A stretch of DNA of 54,849 bases from a virus (Duplodnaviria; Caudoviricetes), in the IMG/VR virus record IMGVR_UViG_3300038675_000850, positions 1 to 54,849 of that record. The stretch is one strand, 5' to 3'. Position numbers and translations under genes: made by a program. How positions within the stretch are numbered: position 1 is the first letter of the stretch; the number at the start of each line of letters is the position of its first letter. The notes beneath the pieces were generated by a model. That model did not search any database and was not told the DNA's origin. It saw nothing but the letters and a program-made list of their open reading frames with translations. Positions 25,439 to 34,778 of this stretch are shown in pieces.

Positions 25439-26344
25439 CTATGATATGACAGAAAAACAGGAAAAAATAAGTCCTGCTTTTCCAGTATTAAAGTAATTAT
25501 CAGAGAAGCATTCAATGATGAACGCTGCTCTTTCCTGCCCTGAATTGAGAAGCGCTGAGGACATGTATCCGAGCACTGCCCTCCGCACCTTCTCCGGATC
25601 TTCATCAATCCCCTTGATGATCTTGGACACTTCTTTCCAGGATTCCTTTTTCAGAAGTGCCCGGCAGAGATCAATGACCGCGGCCTCTTCCACCTTGGCG
25701 GATCGGATGGCTTCTTTGATCTCATCTTCTTTTGTGAGTCCTATAACCTTTTGTAAAGTAATTACTGCTTGCCGGGCACTCCCCTCACATTCCTCTGCAA
25801 TATCCTGAAGAATTTCCTTATCAATTTCTTTCTTTTCTTTCTGACATATTGACCAAAGTAATCTGACAATCTGCTGGTCTTTGAGACGCTCCACCGAGAA
25901 GGTAACTGCTCTATTCTTGATTGTAGGAAGAAGCTTTTCCGGTTCCGTTGTACAAAGCATGAAATAAACATGAGCTGGGGTATCCTCCAGGGCTTTAAGC
26001 ATTGCCTGCTGAAAGTCTTTGGTAGTCTGATGAACCTCATCAAGAAGAAACACCTTGACTGATCCATGAAGGGGTTTATAGACCATCTGGGAAATGATAT
26101 CCCGGGCAGTATCAATACCACGGTTATTTGATGAGTTAAGTTCTACCAGGTCATGAGGGGAGCATTGTAGTTCACTGGCTGTGATTCTGGCAAGAGTGGT
26201 CTTTCCACATCCTGAGGGTCCAGTGAATAGATATACGTGGGGCTTTTTTTCTCCTTCAAGAACAGTCTGAAGAGAAGAGATGGTTGATTTGTTTCCTACC
26301 ACATCAGCAAATTTAGTAGGGCGATACTCAATATTGAAACTCAT
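25439..26344 (-). CDS. DnaX (gamma/tau)-like clamp loader AAA+ ATPase
   Basis: YRPTKFADVVG, GPSGCGKTT, LLDEVH, LKALEDTP. Confidence 0.9.
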   Translation of the reverse strand: MSFNIEYRPTKFADVVGNKSTISSLQTVLEGEKKPHVYLFTGPSGCGKTTLARITASELQCSPHDLVELNSSNNRGIDTARDIISQMVYKPLHGSVKVFLLDEVHQTTKDFQQAMLKALEDTPAHVYFMLCTTEPEKLLPTIKNRAVTFSVERLKDQQIVRLLWSICQKEKKEIDKEILQDIAEECEGSARQAVITLQKVIGLTKEDEIKEAIRSAKVEEAAVIDLCRALLKKESWKEVSKIIKGIDEDPEKVRRAVLGYMSSALLNSGQERAAFIIECFSDNYFNTGKAGLIFSCFSVIS

Positions 26345-28824
26345 ATTTCCTCCTTTTGTTTTTTGTTCCACGGCTCATCAATTCCAGCAATGTCCATTTC
26401 TATATCAAGTGGGACTATTATCCAGGGCCAATACTCCCGGATATCATCACACATGATCCGTTTAATGGCCGGTTTGAGATCCTCTACCTCATCTGGCACT
26501 GCATCAAGAACCATGGAGTCATGAATCTGTCCAATTATGAGGGAGTCCATTTTTTCTTTTTCAAGGTGCTCTTGTACATGAATTATTGACCAGAGGAGGC
26601 AGTGAAAAGCAGGTCCCTGCATTGGGAAGTTGAGGACTTCATTTTTAGTATAAAGGCCTCTGCATCTGAATCCTGAAAGAAGATCCACGTATCCTTTTCT
26701 CTGATACTCTTGCCAAGTCTCGTTTTTCCATTCATTATAGACTTGAAACCTATTGTTCCAAAAATCATACTCCACTTTTTTCATATGTTTTTCAAAAGCC
26801 TCATAAGTCTTGAACTTGAGCTGGTCATGAGCTTCTTTCCAAACGGCCTTTGCAGAGTTCACATAATAATCCCCATAGAACTGGGGGAATACAAATTTGT
26901 TTTTAGCCAAGTATCGTTGAATTTTTGAAACTTCATCCAGCTCGAAAATCTCTCTGGCCATGTCTCGGTGCATATCACTGGAAGGATCCTTGATGTATGA
27001 AATCATTTTTGGGTCCTTGTGATTGCAGGCAGAAATCCTGACCTCTATTCCTGAATAGTCTACCTCCATAAGTCTTCTTCCTGGCCTGGGAATGATCCCC
27101 TTTCTCGTCACCTTTTGTGCCAGCTCATCACGAACAGGAATATTTTGGAAATTTGGATTACTGCTACTTCCCCTGAAAGAGATCGCGGTGTTTAGATTAT
27201 ACATGGGATGTAAAAATCTTTTATCAGTCTCTTCAATGAAATTAGTGACGTAAGTATTTCTGAGCTTATACAGCTTTTTGTATTGTACGATATTCTTGGT
27301 AAATTCTGTTCCGATATTTTCAAGAACTTCCGTGTCGGTGCTTTCTTGTCCTGTCTCGGTCTCCTTTTCTGACTTTATTCCAAGCAGATCGAAAAGAAGA
27401 ACCTGAAGTTGTTTGGAGGAATTGAAATTAAAATTTTCTTTGAAATTTGCAGTCCATATTTTTGCTTCATCTGAATTGTTTATCTTCTCTTTGAACTTGT
27501 CCATTTTTCGTTGGAGCAATTCCATCTGAGAGTGATAATAATCTTCATCTATATAAATTCCATTTCTTTCAATCTTTGATAAAACCTTTTGTCCCTTTAG
27601 AAAGAACTCTTTTGCATCTGAACGTTCCTGATCTTTTCTATACAACCTGTATCCATAGTAAGAATCAAGGCCACAATACCTCAACAATTGAGCAAGGGGC
27701 ATTTCCTCCATTTTATTCTTGTCGTTGCCAGATCCTTTTGATGATATATACTTCTGCGCTTCTTTGTCATAACCTATGACCCCGAAATTGACATAGATCT
27801 GAAATTTGAGTCCAGTTATTCCTGATCTGTTATCTGCTATGTGACAATCGATCATAGTATCTGCCACCCAGTTATTAACCGGTACCCCCAACAAGATATT
27901 GGTCCAGACATCCTCATATTTGATGTTGTGTCCCACCTTGCCTATGGTAGACAACATTAGCTTCCTGACTTCTTCTATAAACTCAGGATCATCAAAGAAA
28001 GGAAAGCAAGCAGATCCCTTCATGTAGGTGACCCCAAGACAAAGAATTTTATGCCCGTCTGCATAAGGTTTGAGTCCGGTGGTCTCATAGTCAATGGAAA
28101 CATATTTCCCCTTGATTCCTTTTAAAAACTCAATCGCTCCTTCTTTTGTGAAAATTAGTTCAGGCTCAAAGGATTCCTCGGGAAATTCTTTTTCCCATTC
28201 TACAGCGGTTCTGATATGTCTATTGAACAAGGCATGTAGCACCTTATTATCTGAGTTGTAATTCAGATATTGGGGGTGGTAAGTGGGAAAGACCCAGCAC
28301 TGGTATTTCTGATCAGGAATAGTCCAGCCCACCCACTTTTCCATACTTGAAACGGAATCTCTCTCATGAAGAAAGGATTGCATTGCTATTTTGCCAAGAA
28401 TGATTATTTTCTCTGGGTGATATTTGCGAATGGTCTCGTCAAGATATTTATGGCACAATGCCACCTGGCGATTTGTTGGAGTCTTATTCTTTGGAGGCCT
28501 GCATATAATAGCATTGGTCTTCCAGCAATCTTTATCAAGATCAATTCCATGCTTGTCTAAAGTCTTCCTGAGAGTCTTTCCTGCATCCCCTACAAGTTGA
28601 GATCCAAGCTCATCCTCACTCTTCCCCGGAGCTTCAGCAATAATCAAGATCTTTTTTCTTCCTTCACCAGATGGAGGCATCTTTGGAGTCTGGCAGGTCT
28701 TATACAGACCACATTCTTCACACGCACTTCTTTGATCTTTCTTGCCGGATCTCTTCTTTGCTCCTGGGAGATTGGGCTGTCTTGTTTTATTCTTTTTTTC
28801 CTTCTGGTAAAAAAATCCTTTCAA
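26341..28824 (-). CDS. Family A DNA polymerase with N-terminal family-4 UDG-like domain and 3'-5' exonuclease
   Basis: CEEC.L...C, EAPG, CRPP.N, YHP (UDG4); DYETTG exonuclease motif; DYSGIEVR, KNKFVFPQFYG, QIHDS polymerase motifs. Confidence 0.9.
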   Translation of the reverse strand: MKGFFYQKEKKNKTRQPNLPGAKKRSGKKDQRSACEECGLYKTCQTPKMPPSGEGRKKILIIAEAPGKSEDELGSQLVGDAGKTLRKTLDKHGIDLDKDCWKTNAIICRPPKNKTPTNRQVALCHKYLDETIRKYHPEKIIILGKIAMQSFLHERDSVSSMEKWVGWTIPDQKYQCWVFPTYHPQYLNYNSDNKVLHALFNRHIRTAVEWEKEFPEESFEPELIFTKEGAIEFLKGIKGKYVSIDYETTGLKPYADGHKILCLGVTYMKGSACFPFFDDPEFIEEVRKLMLSTIGKVGHNIKYEDVWTNILLGVPVNNWVADTMIDCHIADNRSGITGLKFQIYVNFGVIGYDKEAQKYISSKGSGNDKNKMEEMPLAQLLRYCGLDSYYGYRLYRKDQERSDAKEFFLKGQKVLSKIERNGIYIDEDYYHSQMELLQRKMDKFKEKINNSDEAKIWTANFKENFNFNSSKQLQVLLFDLLGIKSEKETETGQESTDTEVLENIGTEFTKNIVQYKKLYKLRNTYVTNFIEETDKRFLHPMYNLNTAISFRGSSSNPNFQNIPVRDELAQKVTRKGIIPRPGRRLMEVDYSGIEVRISACNHKDPKMISYIKDPSSDMHRDMAREIFELDEVSKIQRYLAKNKFVFPQFYGDYYVNSAKAVWKEAHDQLKFKTYEAFEKHMKKVEYDFWNNRFQVYNEWKNETWQEYQRKGYVDLLSGFRCRGLYTKNEVLNFPMQGPAFHCLLWSIIHVQEHLEKEKMDSLIIGQIHDSMVLDAVPDEVEDLKPAIKRIMCDDIREYWPWIIVPLDIEMDIAGIDEPWNKKQKEEI

Positions 28825-28966
28825 AGCATATCTCCATTGTGATTAGTAATTGCTCATAATAAAAGAAAGATTGCAATCGTCGGAACTCATTGGGGATCAT
28901 ATCAAAAATAAACTTCTCTCTCTCTCTCTTACTTCCTCCAGGTTCCCCGGCCAGATAAATTATCAT
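28787..28966 (-). CDS. DpdA N-terminus-like mini-protein C (59 aa)
   Basis: Manual translation MIIYLAGEPGGSKREREKFIFDMIPNEFRRLQSFFYYEQ...; below the ORF-track cutoff. Confidence 0.65.
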   Translation of the reverse strand: MIIYLAGEPGGSKREREKFIFDMIPNEFRRLQSFFYYEQLLITMEICFERIFLPEGKKE

Positions 28967-29102
28967 TTATTTTCCACCTGAATTCTTCGTTAAACTCCCG
29001 ATCATTACCGTGGTAATGATAAGAGAACAAGCGTTGACTTAATAGATAGTCAAATTCTCTCTCTCTCTGCACTGTAATATTTCCAGCAAAGTAAATTATC
29101 AT
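28929..29102 (-). CDS. DpdA N-terminus-like mini-protein B (57 aa)
   Basis: Manual translation MIIYFAGNITVQREREFDYLLSQRLFSYHYH...; ATGA-coupled to mini-protein A. Confidence 0.65.
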   Translation of the reverse strand: MIIYFAGNITVQREREFDYLLSQRLFSYHYHGNDREFNEEFRWKINDNLSGRGTWRK

Positions 29103-29254
29103 TTATTTTCTCTATACTCTTTTAATATTTCAAGTATCTCAATAAGTCTTTTCATATAATGAAAAGATTGAAGTCTGTTAGCCATATCCGTCATATATAT
29201 ATAGTAACGATCGTGGTGTTTATCAAAACTGTTTCCAGCAAAATAAATCAGCAT
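29099..29254 (-). CDS. DpdA N-terminus-like mini-protein A (51 aa)
   Basis: Manual translation MLIYFAGNSFDKHHDRYYIYMTDMANRLQSFHYMKRL...; overlaps the clamp stop codon. Confidence 0.65.
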   Translation of the reverse strand: MLIYFAGNSFDKHHDRYYIYMTDMANRLQSFHYMKRLIEILEILKEYRENK

Positions 29255-30258
29255 AGAGCTACCAGATGCTTGAAGTTTTCCGCGTGAATATGCATTTTAT
29301 TATCATCAAGAATGACCTCAGTCAGAATGCCCAGAACAGCTTTCAGAAAATCAGGATGAACTTCAAACTTCAGATCAGGACACTCTGTAGAGTCAACGGA
29401 AAACTCCATCCATCCTTTCTGATTAGAGCTCCTGCAATAAAGAACTCCCTGTTCAATATTTATCTCCACCTTGATGTCCACATCTATGGAGTCCGAAAAA
29501 ACAGAACAGGCTTCAAGTGCTTCCAGAAGATTGCCTGAAGGCAGTTCAATCTTGACTGCTTCTGGGGAAACCTCAAACATTCCCTCAACATCAGGGAATT
29601 CAGCCTCCACTACCCGGCAGAAAAAGAAGACCCCACTTTTACTCTTGAAATAAATCCAGGAATCGTTAAGAGCAAAATGGGTCACGTCTTTCATCTTGAC
29701 CAGTTCGATTGCAGAAGTAAGTGGAATGAGGATGTCTCTTTTGCTTAAAGGAAGATCCATCGTAAAAAGACTGACTCTGAAGTTATCGGAACTTACAATG
29801 GTATTGCCTTTAATAGCCACGCAATTCAGATATGGAACCGAGGAAGCTTTTGCCACTGAAAAAAGACAATACTCTATTCCTTCAAGAAGAGTTTTTGGAA
29901 TCACTTTCCACTTTATTTCATCAATGTGTTTTATTGGCAATGCTTCCTGGATCTTATTTTCTACAAGACCAATACCTGCCCGGAACTTCTTGTTGACAAG
30001 GGTCATCTCTTTATCAGAACAGTTGACCTCCAGATCATCTGTTTTTGCGTTCTGAAGAGTCTTGGTAAATTCCTGAGCAGGAATACAGCAAGAGAAATCT
30101 GTTTTGTATGGATGAGCTATACTTATTCGATCATTGAAGGTGATCATATAATCACCATCCATCATGATACATGCGGTCTCTTCAATGATCCCTTTGGTGG
30201 AGATCCCAGGACTGACTTTACTTATGATTTCAAGAGTGCTTTTTCTGTCAAGATTCAT
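29248..30258 (-). CDS. DNA polymerase III beta-like sliding clamp
   Basis: SDNFRVS, ILIP, RVVEAEFPDV motifs; size and proximity to clamp loader and polymerase. Confidence 0.75.
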   Translation of the reverse strand: MNLDRKSTLEIISKVSPGISTKGIIEETACIMMDGDYMITFNDRISIAHPYKTDFSCCIPAQEFTKTLQNAKTDDLEVNCSDKEMTLVNKKFRAGIGLVENKIQEALPIKHIDEIKWKVIPKTLLEGIEYCLFSVAKASSVPYLNCVAIKGNTIVSSDNFRVSLFTMDLPLSKRDILIPLTSAIELVKMKDVTHFALNDSWIYFKSKSGVFFFCRVVEAEFPDVEGMFEVSPEAVKIELPSGNLLEALEACSVFSDSIDVDIKVEINIEQGVLYCRSSNQKGWMEFSVDSTECPDLKFEVHPDFLKAVLGILTEVILDDNKMHIHAENFKHLVALC

Positions 30259-30397
30259 TCTTCATGTACTCCTTTAATGTGGTTTTTGTTTCTATTTTTA
30301 TTAAGTAGAAAGATAAAAGCCTTTCTCTCTTTTGACAAAAGTCCAGAGAGGCTTTCTGATTAGCTTCTTGAAGCCAGGTAGCCATGTATATCTTCAT
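30248..30397 (-). CDS. DpdA N-terminus-like mini-protein E (49 aa)
   Basis: Manual translation MKIYMATWLQEANQKASLDFCQKRERLLSFYLIK...; ATGA-coupled to mini-protein D. Confidence 0.65.
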   Translation of the reverse strand: MKIYMATWLQEANQKASLDFCQKRERLLSFYLIKIETKTTLKEYMKNES

Positions 30398-30555
30398 TCT
30401 CGGTCCTCTTTCAGCATTTCCAGAGTATCTTTTAACCAGACATTCACATAATGATATGAGTGAAGCCTATTCCATACTGGCATCATTCTTGCCAACTCCT
30501 GTTCTCTCCCTTTGACATTCATGACAGAGAATCCTGAAGCCAAATACACTATCAT
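30394..30555 (-). CDS. DpdA N-terminus-like mini-protein D (53 aa)
   Basis: Manual translation MIVYLASGFSVMNVKGREQELARMMPVWNRLHSYHYV...; ATGA-coupled to the dpdA stop. Confidence 0.65.
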   Translation of the reverse strand: MIVYLASGFSVMNVKGREQELARMMPVWNRLHSYHYVNVWLKDTLEMLKEDRE

Positions 30556-31442
30556 ATAAGTCCAAGAGAAGTAGCTTTTTTGAGTTTAAAGTTCCAAGGC
30601 CATTTGGGAAGATTGTTCTGGAGATCTATGAAATAGATGATGTTGATTTCATCCCGTTTTTTGTAGTCAGATGAAAGTTCTTCTGGGGTATAACCTTTCT
30701 CTTTGAAATAGTCCAGAATCATTTTCTGTTCCAGGACTGAAAAAGTGTTGAAGTGCTGTCCTTCATCATCTTTCTTGGAGGACTTGTCAGATATATTCAC
30801 TTTGTGAGGAATTTCTGTGTAAGTATATTTACCCATTTTCTTTTTTGGGACCAGAACTCCCCCAAATCTTCCGGTCATTACCCAGCTTGTACTGTCCACA
30901 GAGTACCACGGGTACCTGACCAGTAGAGGAATTGCAGTCAAGCCAAAGCCATGAACCTTGACTTTGGGAGCACCCGAGGAATCACAGATATGATGAAGAA
31001 ACAGATCGTCAAGCCAGACCATCAGATCTTTAGTGGAAATAGGAACCATGCCCCCCAGGGCAATGTAATCATAGTTATCGATATAATGCTTCAGATACTT
31101 CAGATCTTCCCCATAATGAAAGCAGGGAAGAGGAGAAAGTCCTTTTGACTCCATGTACTTTTGATTCTCAAGAGTCTTTTCAGGATCTCCGATGGAGTCA
31201 AGAACAGCATAAACAGAGATATATTCTTCATGCTCTTTTATGAATGCAATGTATTCATCAATATCAATAGAGACTCCTTTGCTCCAAGCGCTGAACGCTC
31301 CAGAGTCAAGAAACAAGTTTATTTTTTTATCCATAGGATTGCTCCTCTTTTTTATAATAGCGTAATATGATTCCAATGAATACTCTTTATGTATCCCATA
31401 AAGAGAAAGACGTTGGATGGTATCGGCCAAATGAATTTTCAC
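30552..31442 (-). CDS. dpdA: DpdA-like (TGT-fold) DNA 7-deazaguanine transglycosylase
   Basis: FLDSGAFS, LDSIGD, PCFHYG, IALGGMV, VHGFG, SVDSTSW; located in the que cluster. Confidence 0.8.
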   Translation of the reverse strand: MKIHLADTIQRLSLYGIHKEYSLESYYAIIKKRSNPMDKKINLFLDSGAFSAWSKGVSIDIDEYIAFIKEHEEYISVYAVLDSIGDPEKTLENQKYMESKGLSPLPCFHYGEDLKYLKHYIDNYDYIALGGMVPISTKDLMVWLDDLFLHHICDSSGAPKVKVHGFGLTAIPLLVRYPWYSVDSTSWVMTGRFGGVLVPKKKMGKYTYTEIPHKVNISDKSSKKDDEGQHFNTFSVLEQKMILDYFKEKGYTPEELSSDYKKRDEINIIYFIDLQNNLPKWPWNFKLKKATSLGLI

Positions 31443-31447
31443 AAAAT

Positions 31448-31654
31448 TTATCTCTTTTTTATCTTGGTAAAAAGACGGGTCATTCTTTTGTAATCAGGGT
31501 CTACAGGATTGGGAGATTTTTCTTCTCCAAAATATCTGAAGTGAAGGGAACCCACTCCTAAACCAAAAATCATAAACTCAGTCCAGAGTTGGTCATGCTC
31601 TGGACCTGAGTTTTCACCATCAGTGATCATTGCCATGGTGAAGTAAATGTTCAC
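31448..31654 (-). CDS. Small hypothetical protein, possibly a divergent DpdA-N mini-protein
   Basis: Starts MNIYF; lies between folE and dpdA. Confidence 0.5.
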
Positions 31655-32517
31655 TTGATCAGCCTCATGAGTTCAGCTCTCGCAGATTCTTTTTCAAGAA
31701 AAGCTCCCTGAAGAGATGAAGTGACCATGATGCTGTTCTGCTTCTGGACCCCTCTCATGAGCATACACAGATGTTGAGCTTCAATAATACAGGCTGCCGC
31801 TTTTGGCTGAAGATATTCCATCAGGCAATCAGTAACCTGTTTGGTGAGGCGTTCCTGGATTTGAAGTCTCCGGGCGTACATTTCTACAATGCGGGCCAGC
31901 TTTGAGATACCAAGAACTTTTTTATCTGGGATGTAAGCAATATGAGCCTTTCCGATGAATGGGAGCATGTGGTGTTCACACATTGAATAGACCTCAATGT
32001 CTTTCAGAAGCACAATCTCATCATATCCATCAGCATCAAAAGTCTTGATGAAGTCTTCTGGCTTCTCATTGTAGCCCTTGTAAAGAGTTCCCCAAGATTT
32101 GACCACTCTCTTGGGGGTCTCTTCCAGACCTTCTCTCGTTGGATCTTCTCCTATGGCTTGAAGAACTCTGGTGACAGCGTCCTCTGCAGGAGCCTCATTG
32201 CTCATAGTCTCCCAAGGAAAGACCACCCAGTCATTTGCTCCATAACACTTTTTATCCCAAACAGCCCAAAAAGTGTATTCAGAAAACCGCTCCCTTGTAG
32301 CTCCTGAGTCTATGATATCATCTACTACAAGAACATCTGAGGGATTTAGTCCTTTAAGAGAGCTGGTCATACGTAAGTTGGCTATTTCTGAAATCATGAT
32401 GGCAATGGGAATTCCTCCACGAGGAACTCCATAAACAAAGATAAAAGAAGACAGATCAGTAGTAGAAATAAACTGAGATACTCTCTCTCTGATTGCTGCC
32501 CAAGATAGATTGATCAT
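31651..32517 (-). CDS. folE: GTP cyclohydrolase I (FolE) fused to an N-terminal type I phosphoribosyltransferase-like domain
   Basis: N-domain [26 protein letters not shown]; C-domain [38 protein letters not shown]. Confidence 0.9.
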
Positions 32518-33161
32518 TTTGAAACCTCGTACTCTGTGGGATCAAATCCTTCAAGAGCTTCCTTCCTCTCGGTACAGGTGCCACATTTACCGCAGTGAAT
32601 ATCTCCTCCTTTGTAACAGCTCCAAGTTCTTGAAAAATCAACTCCAATGGACATCCCAAGAAGACCAATGTCCCGCTTGGTCATGAAGGTGAAAGGAGCT
32701 TCGAGCTTTACCTGAGAGTAGGTCCCCATGAGCATAGCGTCTTTCATGGCAGAAATAAAAGGAACCCGGCAATCAGGATAGATGGCATGGTCCCCGGCAT
32801 GGTTAGCGATGAGAACTGAAGAGCAATCATTGCTTTCTGCTATCCCCGCAGCAATGGAAAGCATGATACCATTTCTGAAAGGTACCACGGTTTTCTTCAT
32901 GATCTGGTCTTCATAGTGGCCTTCCGGAATCGCTTCCCCCCCTTTAAGAAGTCCAGACTTCAAGTATGGAGTTATTCTTTCCAGATTGATGGATATCCAG
33001 GGAATTCCAAGAGAGTTGCAGTTATCCAAGGCGTAATGCAGTTCTTTATTATGCTTCTGGCCATAATCGAAAGAGACTGCCAGTTTGATCTCTTCTTTTT
33101 TGAGATGGAGGAGGGTGATGGAGTCCATACCCCCGGACACTATGATGAGCTTGTCTTTCAT
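32514..33161 (-). CDS. queC: 7-cyano-7-deazaguanine synthase
   Basis: [35 protein letters not shown]. Confidence 0.95.
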
Positions 33162-33676
33162 AGATAAAACTCTCCTTTGTCGTTTACCTTGATGTTCATT
33201 CCTTTTTCTTTGGCCATACGACCAGGGAGCTGAACCTTGATGGTGTTCATCATGGAGGTTTCTTCTTTGTCTGGGAAGTTCTTTCTCAGCTGTGACAGAA
33301 TCTTGTCCCTGGAAACCGGCTTGTATTTTGAACTGGCTCTGATGATGGCCTCAATGGTAGTGATGACTCCGGGTTTTTTTTCTCCTGCTTCTTTCTTGGG
33401 AGCTTTTTTTTCTCCGGTTGATTTCTTGGCTGAAGCGGATGCTTTTGTTTTGGCTCGGATGTCTGCGGGGACATCCATCTCCTGATCGGTCAGAAAGTCC
33501 AGGGTCTTTTGTGAGACCGTGGCTTTGCCTTCAAAGGCTTCCACCACTTCTTTGATCTCTGAAATGATCATGGAGCTTGTGGTCCGGGACACCACCTTGA
33601 TAGCGGGATCCGGGTTGAGTTCTTTGTTGATTTCATCCACTATGCGGATGAGGTCGTCTCTTGTAGGTGCTGACAT
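33158..33676 (-). CDS. Hypothetical basic protein, possibly DNA-binding
   Basis: Lys-rich linker, winged-helix-like C-terminus; embedded in the que cluster. Confidence 0.5.
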   Translation of the reverse strand: MSAPTRDDLIRIVDEINKELNPDPAIKVVSRTTSSMIISEIKEVVEAFEGKATVSQKTLDFLTDQEMDVPADIRAKTKASASAKKSTGEKKAPKKEAGEKKPGVITTIEAIIRASSKYKPVSRDKILSQLRKNFPDKEETSMMNTIKVQLPGRMAKEKGMNIKVNDKGEFYL

Positions 33677-33691
33677 AATTTTCTCCTTTTG

Positions 33692-34336
33692 TTATTTGAT
33701 ATTTAATAGCTTGTGAAGCTGGACATTCACACTTATCAGATTATCTTGAGCCAACTGACATCTGTCAATGAATTCAAGAATATCGTCCACTGAAACTTCT
33801 CCATGCACGGGACTCAGAGCTATTCCAATATTTGGAAAATAAAAAGATATTTCTTTGATGAAGCGTTCCAACTCATTATTAAGTTGATCATGGTCTTCTA
33901 CCATAATTTTTAATATCCCTTTCTCCGTGGCATTTAAAACATTATAATTGTTCGGGAGAGGGGGAGATTGTTTTTTGTAATTCATGATTACGGAGTCTGC
34001 ATTGTTTGCCGTATCAGTAAGGTCCCTGGTTCCATTGGTCTCAATAGAGATGGTATGCCCGTTGTCTCGGAGAATGACAATCAACTCCATTAAATCATCC
34101 TGAAGAAGAGGTTCTCCACCAGTCAAGGTGACTTTCTGGCAATTTAGATCTCCGACGTGTTCTGCCACCGCTTCTGGAGTCATAAACAGACCACTGTCAA
34201 TCGATCTGGATTCTTTAGTGTCACAATAAGGGCAGGCAAGATTGCATCCTGCAAAACGAACGAAGGTGGAAACGACTCCCTGACCAAAAGCATTGACCTC
34301 CCCATCAATGCTTTTGAATATTTCCATGACTCTCAT
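33692..34336 (-). CDS. queE: 7-carboxy-7-deazaguanine synthase (radical SAM)
   Basis: EIFKSIDGE, RFAGCNLACPYCDT, LTGGEP, IETNGT, QLHK. Confidence 0.95.
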   Translation of the reverse strand: MRVMEIFKSIDGEVNAFGQGVVSTFVRFAGCNLACPYCDTKESRSIDSGLFMTPEAVAEHVGDLNCQKVTLTGGEPLLQDDLMELIVILRDNGHTISIETNGTRDLTDTANNADSVIMNYKKQSPPLPNNYNVLNATEKGILKIMVEDHDQLNNELERFIKEISFYFPNIGIALSPVHGEVSVDDILEFIDRCQLAQDNLISVNVQLHKLLNIK

Positions 34337-34734
34337 GAACACCTCCATTCAGCGTAACTGGTACTGGTCTCCCAGAGCCGTACTCTGACAAGTTCGGTAT
34401 TCTTATGACTCCGGAAGAAGAGGTTCACTTGAATTTCTCCGGCAATCCAGTCTACCATATTTTCTGCTGTGGGGGGCACCACAAAGAGATTATTTAGGTA
34501 TTGGTGATCAAACTTGGATATGATGATGTCATTTACCATGGCTTTCAGATCCCCAAAATCTATAACCATACCTGAGGCAAGCTGTTCAGGTGTTTTTTCC
34601 GAAACCTGATCATAAATATACCCAACTTCTACCTCAAGTTTGTAAGTATGTCCATGAAGACTCTTGCATTTGCCGGGGTGATTTGGGAGATGATGAGCGG
34701 CTTCAAACTCAAATAATTTTGTAACGGTTGTCAT
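34333..34734 (-). CDS. queD: 6-carboxytetrahydropterin synthase
   Basis: FEAAHHL, CKSLHGHTY, GMVIDF, DHQYLN, PTAEN, LWET. Confidence 0.95.
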   Translation of the reverse strand: MTTVTKLFEFEAAHHLPNHPGKCKSLHGHTYKLEVEVGYIYDQVSEKTPEQLASGMVIDFGDLKAMVNDIIISKFDHQYLNNLFVVPPTAENMVDWIAGEIQVNLFFRSHKNTELVRVRLWETSTSYAEWRCS

Positions 34735-34750
34735 TTTTTGTTCTCCTTGT

Positions 34751-34778
34751 TTTATATATACCAAAATTTTTAAAAGTG
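34751..34778 (-). promoter_or_regulatory. 28-bp repeated element, copy 2 (putative middle promoter of the que operon)
   Basis: CACTTTTAAAAATTTTGGTATATATAAA on the minus strand, identical to 25399-25426. Confidence 0.6.

Follow-up and report, generated by a model that had tools for sequence, protein, structure and literature searches.

DpdA enzymes replace guanine with a 7-deazaguanine in the DNA of phages, and modification of this type is one of the major means by which phages escape restriction and CRISPR cutting. The window analysed here is the whole of the 54,849-base IMG/VR virus contig IMGVR_UViG_3300038675_000850 (CheckV completeness estimate 36), in which a DpdA gene is accompanied by five very small open reading frames (ORFs), designated m1 to m5. 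These mini-ORFs are homologous to the N-terminal β1-α1-β2-α2 quarter of the phage DpdA barrel, and in related uncultivated phages the DpdA gene itself usually lacks this quarter. The reading favoured here, to which a probability of about 0.6 is assigned on the strength of sequence comparison and structural modelling, is that of a naturally split DpdA, the catalytic core of which would be completed in trans by several diverged quarter-barrel subunits.

Homology of the mini-genes to the DpdA N-terminus

An original prediction, derived from the DNA sequence alone, held that five short ORFs with a common motif lie beside the DpdA gene, and all five (49–59 aa) were found on the minus strand at exactly the coordinates it had given. 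These are m5 (30394–30555; 53 aa; subtype A; MIVYLASGFSVMNVKGRE...WNRLHSYHY; family profile E 2.2e-23), m4 (30248–30397; 49 aa; subtype B; MKIYMATWLQEANQK...RLLSFY; E 1.6e-9), m3 (29099–29254; 51 aa; MLIYFAGNSFDKHH...RLQSFHY; E 2.2e-14), m2 (28929–29102; 57 aa; subtype C; MIIYFAGNITVQRERE...RLFSYHY; E 5.8e-11) and m1 (28787–28966; 59 aa; subtype D; MIIYLAGEPGGSKRERE...RLQSFFY; E 1.1e-14). Alignment of the five gives the common pattern MxIYxA...RLxS[FY], with M1, Y4, A6, R30, L31 and S33 invariant, and the likeness among them is far beyond chance. Exactly five matches (E 1.6e-23 to 2.2e-15) were obtained when a narrower profile of the family was run over the 54,849-base record, and a profile of 145 stand-alone family members, applied to 4,011 six-frame ORFs, recovered the same five mini-ORFs at E values of 2e-23 to 1.6e-9, with the next match in the window at E 0.42. 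Neighbouring reading frames are joined by ATGA-type stop/start overlaps or by 38-nt overlaps: the m5 ATG overlaps the DpdA stop codon (ATGA), m4 overlaps both the m5 stop and the start of a sliding clamp gene, the m3 start overlaps the clamp stop, the end of m2 runs over the m1 start in another frame, and m1 shares 38 nt with the start of a DNA polymerase gene. The 68-aa ORF at 31448–31654 on the minus strand (MNIYF...), located between FolE and DpdA and suggested as a sixth member of the set, matches neither family profile at E ≤ 10, has no credible Pfam or PHROG match, and was rejected as a module.

The window DpdA (30552–31442, minus strand; 296 aa; phrog_887 E 3.3e-67) initiates at a GTG codon with a weak Shine-Dalgarno site and incorporates an in-frame N-module of its own at residues 1–36 (31335–31442; subtype E; MKIHLADTIQRL...LESYY), followed by the catalytic core from Met37 onwards (30552–31334; β3 to β8 and the C-terminal helices). 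The pattern that these first 36 residues had been said to share with the mini-ORFs reflects a real, though weaker, likeness, as the N-termini of the window DpdA and seven close relatives (MK[IV][HY]LADTIQRERLY...LESYY) align with the mini-gene profile over 32 columns (hhalign 93.7 %, E 1.8e-7). Full-length DpdA proteins of other phages start in the same manner, with MKLYLAG in Burkholderia phage BcepGomr, MNLFIAG in a Stenotrophomonas phage and MNVFMAA in Escherichia phage CAjan; each displays M-x-[LVF]-[YF]-x-A, some 30–40 residues later [IL]LESYHY, and only then VFLDSGAFS. A search of phage DpdA N-termini with a hidden Markov model (HMM) of the peptides, which had been put forward as a check, confirmed the homology: the HMM of 145 stand-alone mini-proteins was run against 124 DpdA proteins, with their 124 reversed copies as decoys, and 22 domain matches in 20 of the proteins exceeded the top decoy score (8.2 bits), the highest reaching 33.4 and 31.7 bits. 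Twenty of the 22 matches begin at DpdA residues 1–18, and the other two fall in a single protein with three tandem modules (P0162), on its second and third module.

The AlphaFold2 (AF2) model of the window DpdA (mean predicted local distance difference test, pLDDT, 85.7; predicted template modelling score 0.82) contains strands at residues 2–5, 22–25, 43–46, 75–79, 107–109, 126–130, 162–165 and 181–183, alternating with helices. Its top-ranking Foldseek matches are the archaeosine tRNA-guanine transglycosylase (TGT), the bacterial and human TGTs and the DNA preQ0 insertase DpdA of 7ui4, and the fold is that of a (β/α)8 TGT-type barrel by the model, Foldseek and VIA alignment; a sequence search of the PDB with a full-length DpdA returned no match. 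Model residues 1–280 align by VIA with residues 4–409 of the 7ui4 chain (Z 18.1; root-mean-square deviation 3.4; 251 residues), and the VIA alignment with the Zymomonas TGT begins at residue 40, past the N-terminal lid of that enzyme. On the basis of these alignments the N-module represents β1-α1-β2-α2 of the barrel, and the earlier assignment of the mini-proteins to the first strands and helix of a TGT barrel is borne out in that their counterparts in DpdA form β1 and β2. The residues D46, D82 and D183, invariant in 67 homologues, terminate strands 3, 4 and 8 respectively, all within the core, and from their strand order they would be equivalent to Asp95, Asp130 and Asp256 of the Salmonella enzyme. 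According to PMC10164549, these three Salmonella aspartates are catalytic and lie on strands after β2. The window protein contains only two cysteines and has no zinc motif of the form CXCX2CX22H, on account of which it is grouped with the phage DpdA proteins (phrog_887) and not with the bacterial Dpd type.

Core-only DpdA genes and their linkage to free modules

Using the window DpdA as query, 4,203 homologous proteins could be identified at E ≤ 1e-20. Among the best 120 of these, 81 start no more than 12 residues before the [LIV]FLDSGA[FY]S motif, and a crude N-terminus pattern applied to the same 120 classified 89 as lacking a module, 12 as full and 16 as partial, with three lacking the core pattern; this pattern undercounts modules, as several of the partial N-termini are whole modules that are spelled differently. 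In the DpdA-seeded metagenome loci (L003–L021), most DpdA frames likewise open just before the motif, for example with MNKVSLFLDSGAFS or MKKINLFLDSGAYS. Most DpdA genes of this uncultivated clade start just before β3 (LFLDSGAFS), with one to six free modules alongside, which agrees with the suggestion that the first part of the barrel is provided separately. Among the deposited phage records, by comparison, at least 80 % of the full-length query was covered from residue 1 in 155 of 164, including CAjan and the Pa-X/PBPA162 group, and the fused form is therefore the one found in cultured phages.

Free modules and DpdA cores are closely linked. When a wider profile was applied to six-frame ORFs, mini-genes were found in 14/19 DpdA-seeded metagenome loci; three of the remaining five loci end at DpdA, the N-module of L018 is long and fused, and L021 has no match in the ~690 nt downstream. 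No mini-genes were found in L018 or at the DpdA loci of two named phages with a fused DpdA (L001 and L002). Conversely, 14/19 mini-gene-seeded IMG/VR loci hold a DpdA core, the other five being cut 21–1102 nt upstream of the mini-gene. In three of these 14 (L027, L033 and L043) one open frame covers both a module and the core, and in several others only the β2 half of a module is in frame. All 100 mini-gene matches at E ≤ 1e-3 in 33 loci are situated on the DpdA strand, and most six-frame ORFs in these loci are on the opposite strand.

The position of each module within the locus is also conserved. As in the window, subtypes A (GG[FM]TVMNVKGRE...W.RL.S) and B (ATWLxDxxQ..SL) follow DpdA, and subtypes C and D follow the clamp gene, an arrangement that is retained across phages whose DpdA proteins share only 45–66 % identity. 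Orthologues of m5 are found directly downstream of DpdA in L008, L010, L011, L020, L037 and others, and those of m4 are second after DpdA in L008–L011, L016 and L037. Orthologous relationships with database proteins could be assigned for m1 (P0012, P0017 and P0018), m2 (P0013 and P0213), m3 (P0223) and m4 (P0014, P0215 and P0235). The minimal form is represented by L020, which comprises one core-only DpdA and one mini-gene. The same module type may occur fused to the core (P0067 and P0079) or as a separate overlapping ORF (L010 and L011). Directly upstream of the core-only DpdA, L009 (3441–4268) and L012 (1341–2187) carry another DpdA-like ORF, which is diverged and has a short N-module fused to it (MKIYYAAG...VLISYYG...SLFLDSGAF); in L012 this ORF is apparently frameshifted.

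In the window itself, Met37 of DpdA is preceded at 7 nt by AAGAGGAG, and an internal methionine at the core-only start position is retained in 7/7 of the closest fused relatives. This strong ribosome-binding site and the conserved methionine suggest that the window core is probably also produced from Met37.

Predicted assembly of the barrel

Modelling of the peptides together with the core (residues 37–296) had been proposed, and in the pairing modelled, that of the core (67-row alignment) with m5 (72-row alignment), the module docks in the gap of the barrel; this outcome covers m5 alone of the five. The complex scored 0.89 (0.90, 0.89 and 0.80 in three runs), with 0.30 as the highest value among three controls; as a rough guide only, own alignments having been used, 58 of 80 solved complexes attain a mark of this kind, as do 2 of 110 mismatched pairs. 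The runs have at least 96 % of their contacts in common, and the pLDDT of the partner is at least 77. The most confident contacts are those of m5 residues 2–4 with core residues 180–183 (β8) and of m5 residues 28–34 with core residues 42–45 (β3), and m5 is predicted to fill the space between the last and first strands of the core and so to close the barrel. Within residues 1–40 of 145 mini-proteins, the positions of the predicted interface are more conserved than the others (mean entropy 1.80 vs 2.92 bits; Mann-Whitney p 0.007), and positions 9–16, which make up the loop after β1, are variable and form the most subtype-specific part of the mini-proteins.

For the clade as a whole, a mechanism is proposed in which the DpdA gene usually encodes only β3 to β8, with all the catalytic aspartates, and in which the core would need a module. 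The small proteins would bind it in trans, with their β1 pairing to core β8 and their β2 to core β3. Several diverged module subtypes per genome, with their docking strands in common and a differing loop after β1, would then give rise to alternative holoenzymes. As TIM-barrel topology places the loop after β1 on the catalytic, DNA-facing side, the modules might tune the DNA target, an idea that also draws on a suggestion by the authors of PMC10164549 that Ins2 and Ins3 may aid sequence-specific recognition. In the same paper, the loops after β1 (Ins1) and β2 (Ins2) of the Salmonella enzyme are described as part of the DNA surface, where they flank the active site. It is conceivable, as a tentative extension, that the kinds of module differ in function, be it in DNA context, timing or partner.

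A number of points weigh against a split DpdA. The use of one module per barrel leaves the four to six modules per genome unexplained, as it does the proteins with tandem modules (P0144, P0187, P0226, P0245 and P0162). In the window, the trans modules would matter only if the Met37 core is made, since DpdA has an in-frame N-module. This fused module, comprising the first two strand/helix units (within residues 2–31), was modelled at a pLDDT of only 48–68, and the AF2 model of P0162, with three tandem modules and a core, is too poor for its packing to be judged (mean pLDDT 68; modules 36–75). The complex score may reflect the likeness of the two chains together to an intact TIM barrel, a fold known to the modelling program, and not the binding of this particular pair. 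Six of 19 modules bearing (AG)n tracts in relatives are frameshifted, which could mean decay. Finally, a word-based search for longer proteins with a five-sequence profile yielded 818 candidates and no long protein at E ≤ 10, a null result that says little, given that the scores of DpdA N-termini are no higher than 9–33 bits and the database holds 5.8 billion entries.

The surplus of modules would be more readily accommodated if these acted as regulators or competitors, which switch DpdA off or on by binding to its core or by taking the place of the fused N-module, or as decoys for a host factor recognising the DpdA N-terminus. Several modules per single core exceed the needs of assembly, the window DpdA already has its own N-module, and the docking geometry would be identical. 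Nevertheless, such a role appears rather unlikely, given that a fused module that could be displaced is absent from most relatives, that L020 has only a core and one mini-gene, and that conservation is highest in the docking strands, as expected of a structural subunit; furthermore, no host target is known.

Recombination between modules and (AG)n tracts

The original prediction also invoked recombination between modules, and this could be observed in relatives of the window phage. A chimera in which the N-terminal half belongs to subtype A and the C-terminal half to subtype B is present in L015 (6951–7121) and L042 (3424–3594), at the place where L010 (1774–2102) and L037 (5983–6323) have two separate modules, indicating from sequence comparison that neighbouring modules have recombined. 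In a related strain represented by contigs of another study (X3), the first codons of m3 are joined in frame to the rest of m2, with 165 nt (29067–29231) skipped, and this strain therefore has one module fewer. Furthermore, the X3 sequence corresponding to 31329–31450 of the window, from the stop codon of the 68-aa ORF to the third core codon and hence the DpdA N-module, is replaced by 183 other letters; the upstream flank differs at 2 letters in 250 and the core aligns at ~82 % identity, and at the 85 % threshold strong divergence may account for the difference instead of replacement. The contigs of X1 and X2 differ from the window by at most one letter in the matching pieces, and the window may derive from them.

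The conserved R-E-R-E of helix α1 is often encoded by an (AG)5–8 tract. Twenty-three such tracts could be distinguished in the 353 kb made up by the window and the loci, of which 18 lie in mini-gene matches, four in frameshifted remnants beside DpdA cores and one in FolE. Among the 19 tracts flanked by both β1 and β2 motifs, 13 are in frame (four of these being the same module in near-identical contigs), and six shift the frame at the tract (L003 3373, L007 4511, L034 4276, L035 4246, L041 6368 and L044 6211). The tracts may represent slippage-prone on/off switches, sites of decay or assembly errors. In the window, both the (AG)7 tract of m1 (28915–28928) and the (AG)6 tract of m2 (29056–29067) are in frame, and no length difference was found at these two tracts in the X1–X3 contigs, which cannot show minority variants.

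These observations would also fit a store of cassettes at the DNA level, in which recombination between the conserved β1 and β2 coding stretches swaps the DpdA N-terminus and the free copies need not act as proteins. Besides the A/B chimera, the m3/m2 hybrid and the exchanged N-module region of X3 between its aligned flanks, the occurrence of the same module types in both fused and unfused form and a 19–28-nt DNA repeat that spans the module starts are in keeping with it. As the sole purpose of the free copies this is improbable, since they keep their own start, frame and stop, with ratios of non-synonymous to synonymous substitution (dN/dS) well below 1, and silent cassettes would not maintain translational coupling. 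In addition, subtype positions are stable across the diverged phages described above, and neither a recombinase nor inverted repeats were seen. A cassette store can, however, coexist with a split DpdA. In the boldest form of the split reading, a single six-strand core might accept any of four to six interchangeable quarters, the loops of which retarget the 7-deazaguanine, with recombination reshuffling the modules and (AG)n slippage switching them; this scheme is put forward as a possibility that we regard with some doubt.

A large family of unannotated phage proteins

The mini-genes are real genes, and belong to a large unannotated family of 45–75-aa phage proteins under purifying selection. 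A word-indexed search with the five-sequence profile gave 22 candidates, of which 14 were family proteins; five of these are the window's own, and each of the nine from other contigs resembles one particular window paralogue. When HMMER was run with a 14-sequence profile over 1.84 billion cluster representatives, 149 matched at E ≤ 1e-3, eight of them at E ≤ 1e-10. Nearly all 149 are 44–107 aa in length and start at the motif, and one (P0271) is a false positive from a repeat protein. Two-module proteins (P0144, P0187, P0222, P0226 and P0245) are included, as are natural fusions to the DpdA core with one module (P0259; 269 aa) or three in tandem (P0162; 354 aa). In P0241 (126 aa) the module is followed by an unrelated C-terminal domain, which is putatively KTSC-like. 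Nei-Gojobori dN/dS values for type-A copies with DNA available (excluding the five rows derived from the window) are 0.04–0.38 in pairs with dS of 0.4–1, and two pairs of low divergence gave noisy values of 1.15 and 0.53 on the basis of very few changes.

The mini-genes have only scattered matches in Pfam-A and PHROG, at E values of 0.027–0.32, below any cut-off. A tblastn search of 50,697 deposited phage records with a typical member (P0147) gave no match at E ≤ 0.01, and a scan of genome contigs produced a single mini-gene match, on a 1,066-nt contig of a metagenome-assembled genome that is uninformative on the host. In the literature searched, which did not extend to supplements that possibly hold DpdA alignments, no account of such mini-genes or of a split DpdA was found, nor did term searches within PMC6884629, PMC10516641 and PMC10484667 bring any to light. 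Many database entries (P0012, P0015, P0143, P0158, P0218 and others) end in NENI[SLF]S-like tails, which correspond to the ATGAAAATATAT... start of the next module in another frame (window example 28929–28966). Such tails are out-of-frame read-through, from which it follows that consecutive modules are joined by gene callers, and mini-genes are often merged or missed.

In view of the breadth of this family, non-functional relics, whether left as 5′ remnants by DpdA duplicates that have decayed or as scars by gene insertions, provide a very improbable explanation: only the 5′ part of a gene has been copied and the copies of several relatives are frameshifted or truncated, but 149 diverged cluster representatives maintain their length and start, the dN/dS range given above is low, subtype order and strand are constant and translation of the ORFs is coupled to that of the adjacent genes. 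A function unrelated to DpdA is scarcely credible. An ESM Atlas feature search linked the mini-proteins to a DUF4406 cluster (0.91; family on 27 % of members) and a nucleoside 2-deoxyribosyltransferase (NDT) cluster (0.89; 13 %), and MKIYLAG-type starts also occur in NDT-like proteins, so that short relatives of either family, or four modules forming a barrel of their own, might be considered; however, none of 72 family members matches PF14359 or PF05014 at E ≤ 1, neither profile has a match in the record at E ≤ 10 although control genomes do match, and a DpdA core lies beside the mini-genes at every checkable locus. On the negative profile tests of members and record, a DUF4406 or NDT identity was rejected.

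Comparison with known systems

The split DpdA proposed here most closely resembles the DpdA proteins of the Queuovirinae and related phages (CAjan, the iggy group and BcepGomr gp31; phrog_887), with which the window protein shares 41–45 % identity in the core, the FolE-DpdA-clamp-polymerase gene order, adjacent preQ0 genes and the N-terminal motif pair. These characterised phage enzymes, however, carry a single fused N-module and no free modules beside the gene, whereas the window and related uncultivated phages have one to six separate module genes and often a core-only DpdA. The DpdA of Salmonella Montevideo (7ui4), which forms part of the Dpd restriction-modification system, has the same (β/α)8 TGT-type barrel, and its three aspartates would, by strand order, correspond to D46, D82 and D183 at the strand ends of the window protein. 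It differs in being a single chain of 413 residues that, as described in PMC10164549, includes a CXCX2CX22H Zn site and a large helical domain (Ins8) and has DpdB as its partner, whereas the first quarter of the window enzyme also exists as free genes.

TIM barrels have been rebuilt in the laboratory from separate pieces that pair via neighbouring strands, as with the halves of HisF and fragments of PRAI and TIM. Those fragments are engineered halves of one gene, in contrast to the natural quarter/three-quarter division proposed here, with several diverged quarters, and no naturally split TIM barrel was found in the literature searched. If the proposal is correct, it would represent a natural TIM barrel assembled from separately encoded pieces and bear on the idea that (β/α)8 barrels grew from smaller units. 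The phase-variable specificity subunits of type I and type III restriction-modification systems (phasevarions) combine one catalytic machine with exchangeable or switchable small specificity parts, simple repeats and recombination between paralogues. They involve another enzyme class and fold, and in the present case only frame differences between contigs were seen; the modules would, if they retarget the enzyme and are switched in this way, be a phage counterpart of this phase-variable specificity. To our knowledge, what determines the DNA-motif preference of DpdA is not established, and the modules would offer a handle on it, as well as giving a function to at least 149 clusters of 'hypothetical' mini-genes. 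Even if assembly in trans should fail, this DpdA clade can be recognised reliably by the presence of the family.

Neighbouring genes

The remaining genes around DpdA, all on the minus strand, provide the predicted context for the exchange of guanine for 7-deazaguanine in DNA. Upstream lie the preQ0 synthesis genes QueD/PTPS (34333–34764), a QueE-like radical SAM gene (33692–34348), QueC (32514–33161) and FolE (31651–32517), with a 172-aa, lysine-rich ORF without a family match (33158–33676) between QueC and QueE. Downstream, the sliding clamp (DnaN-like; 29248–30258; PF02767 E 2e-8; phrog_947 E 7.2e-33) is located between module pairs, and no relative of the clamp protein was found in viral contigs. 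The DNA polymerase gene (26341–28824) encodes a family A enzyme (PF00476), in which a UDG-superfamily domain (PF03167 E 6.4e-23) precedes the 3′-5′ exonuclease (PF01612) and polymerase domains. The GTP cyclohydrolase I of FolE occupies residues 112–287, and its N-terminal part of ~100 aa shows a weak likeness to phosphoribosyltransferases (phrog_8995 E 3.9e-6; Pfam PF00156 E 0.015, below cut-off). The FolE-DpdA junctions of BcepGomr and CAjan, as that of the window, also contain small ORFs, which are unrelated.

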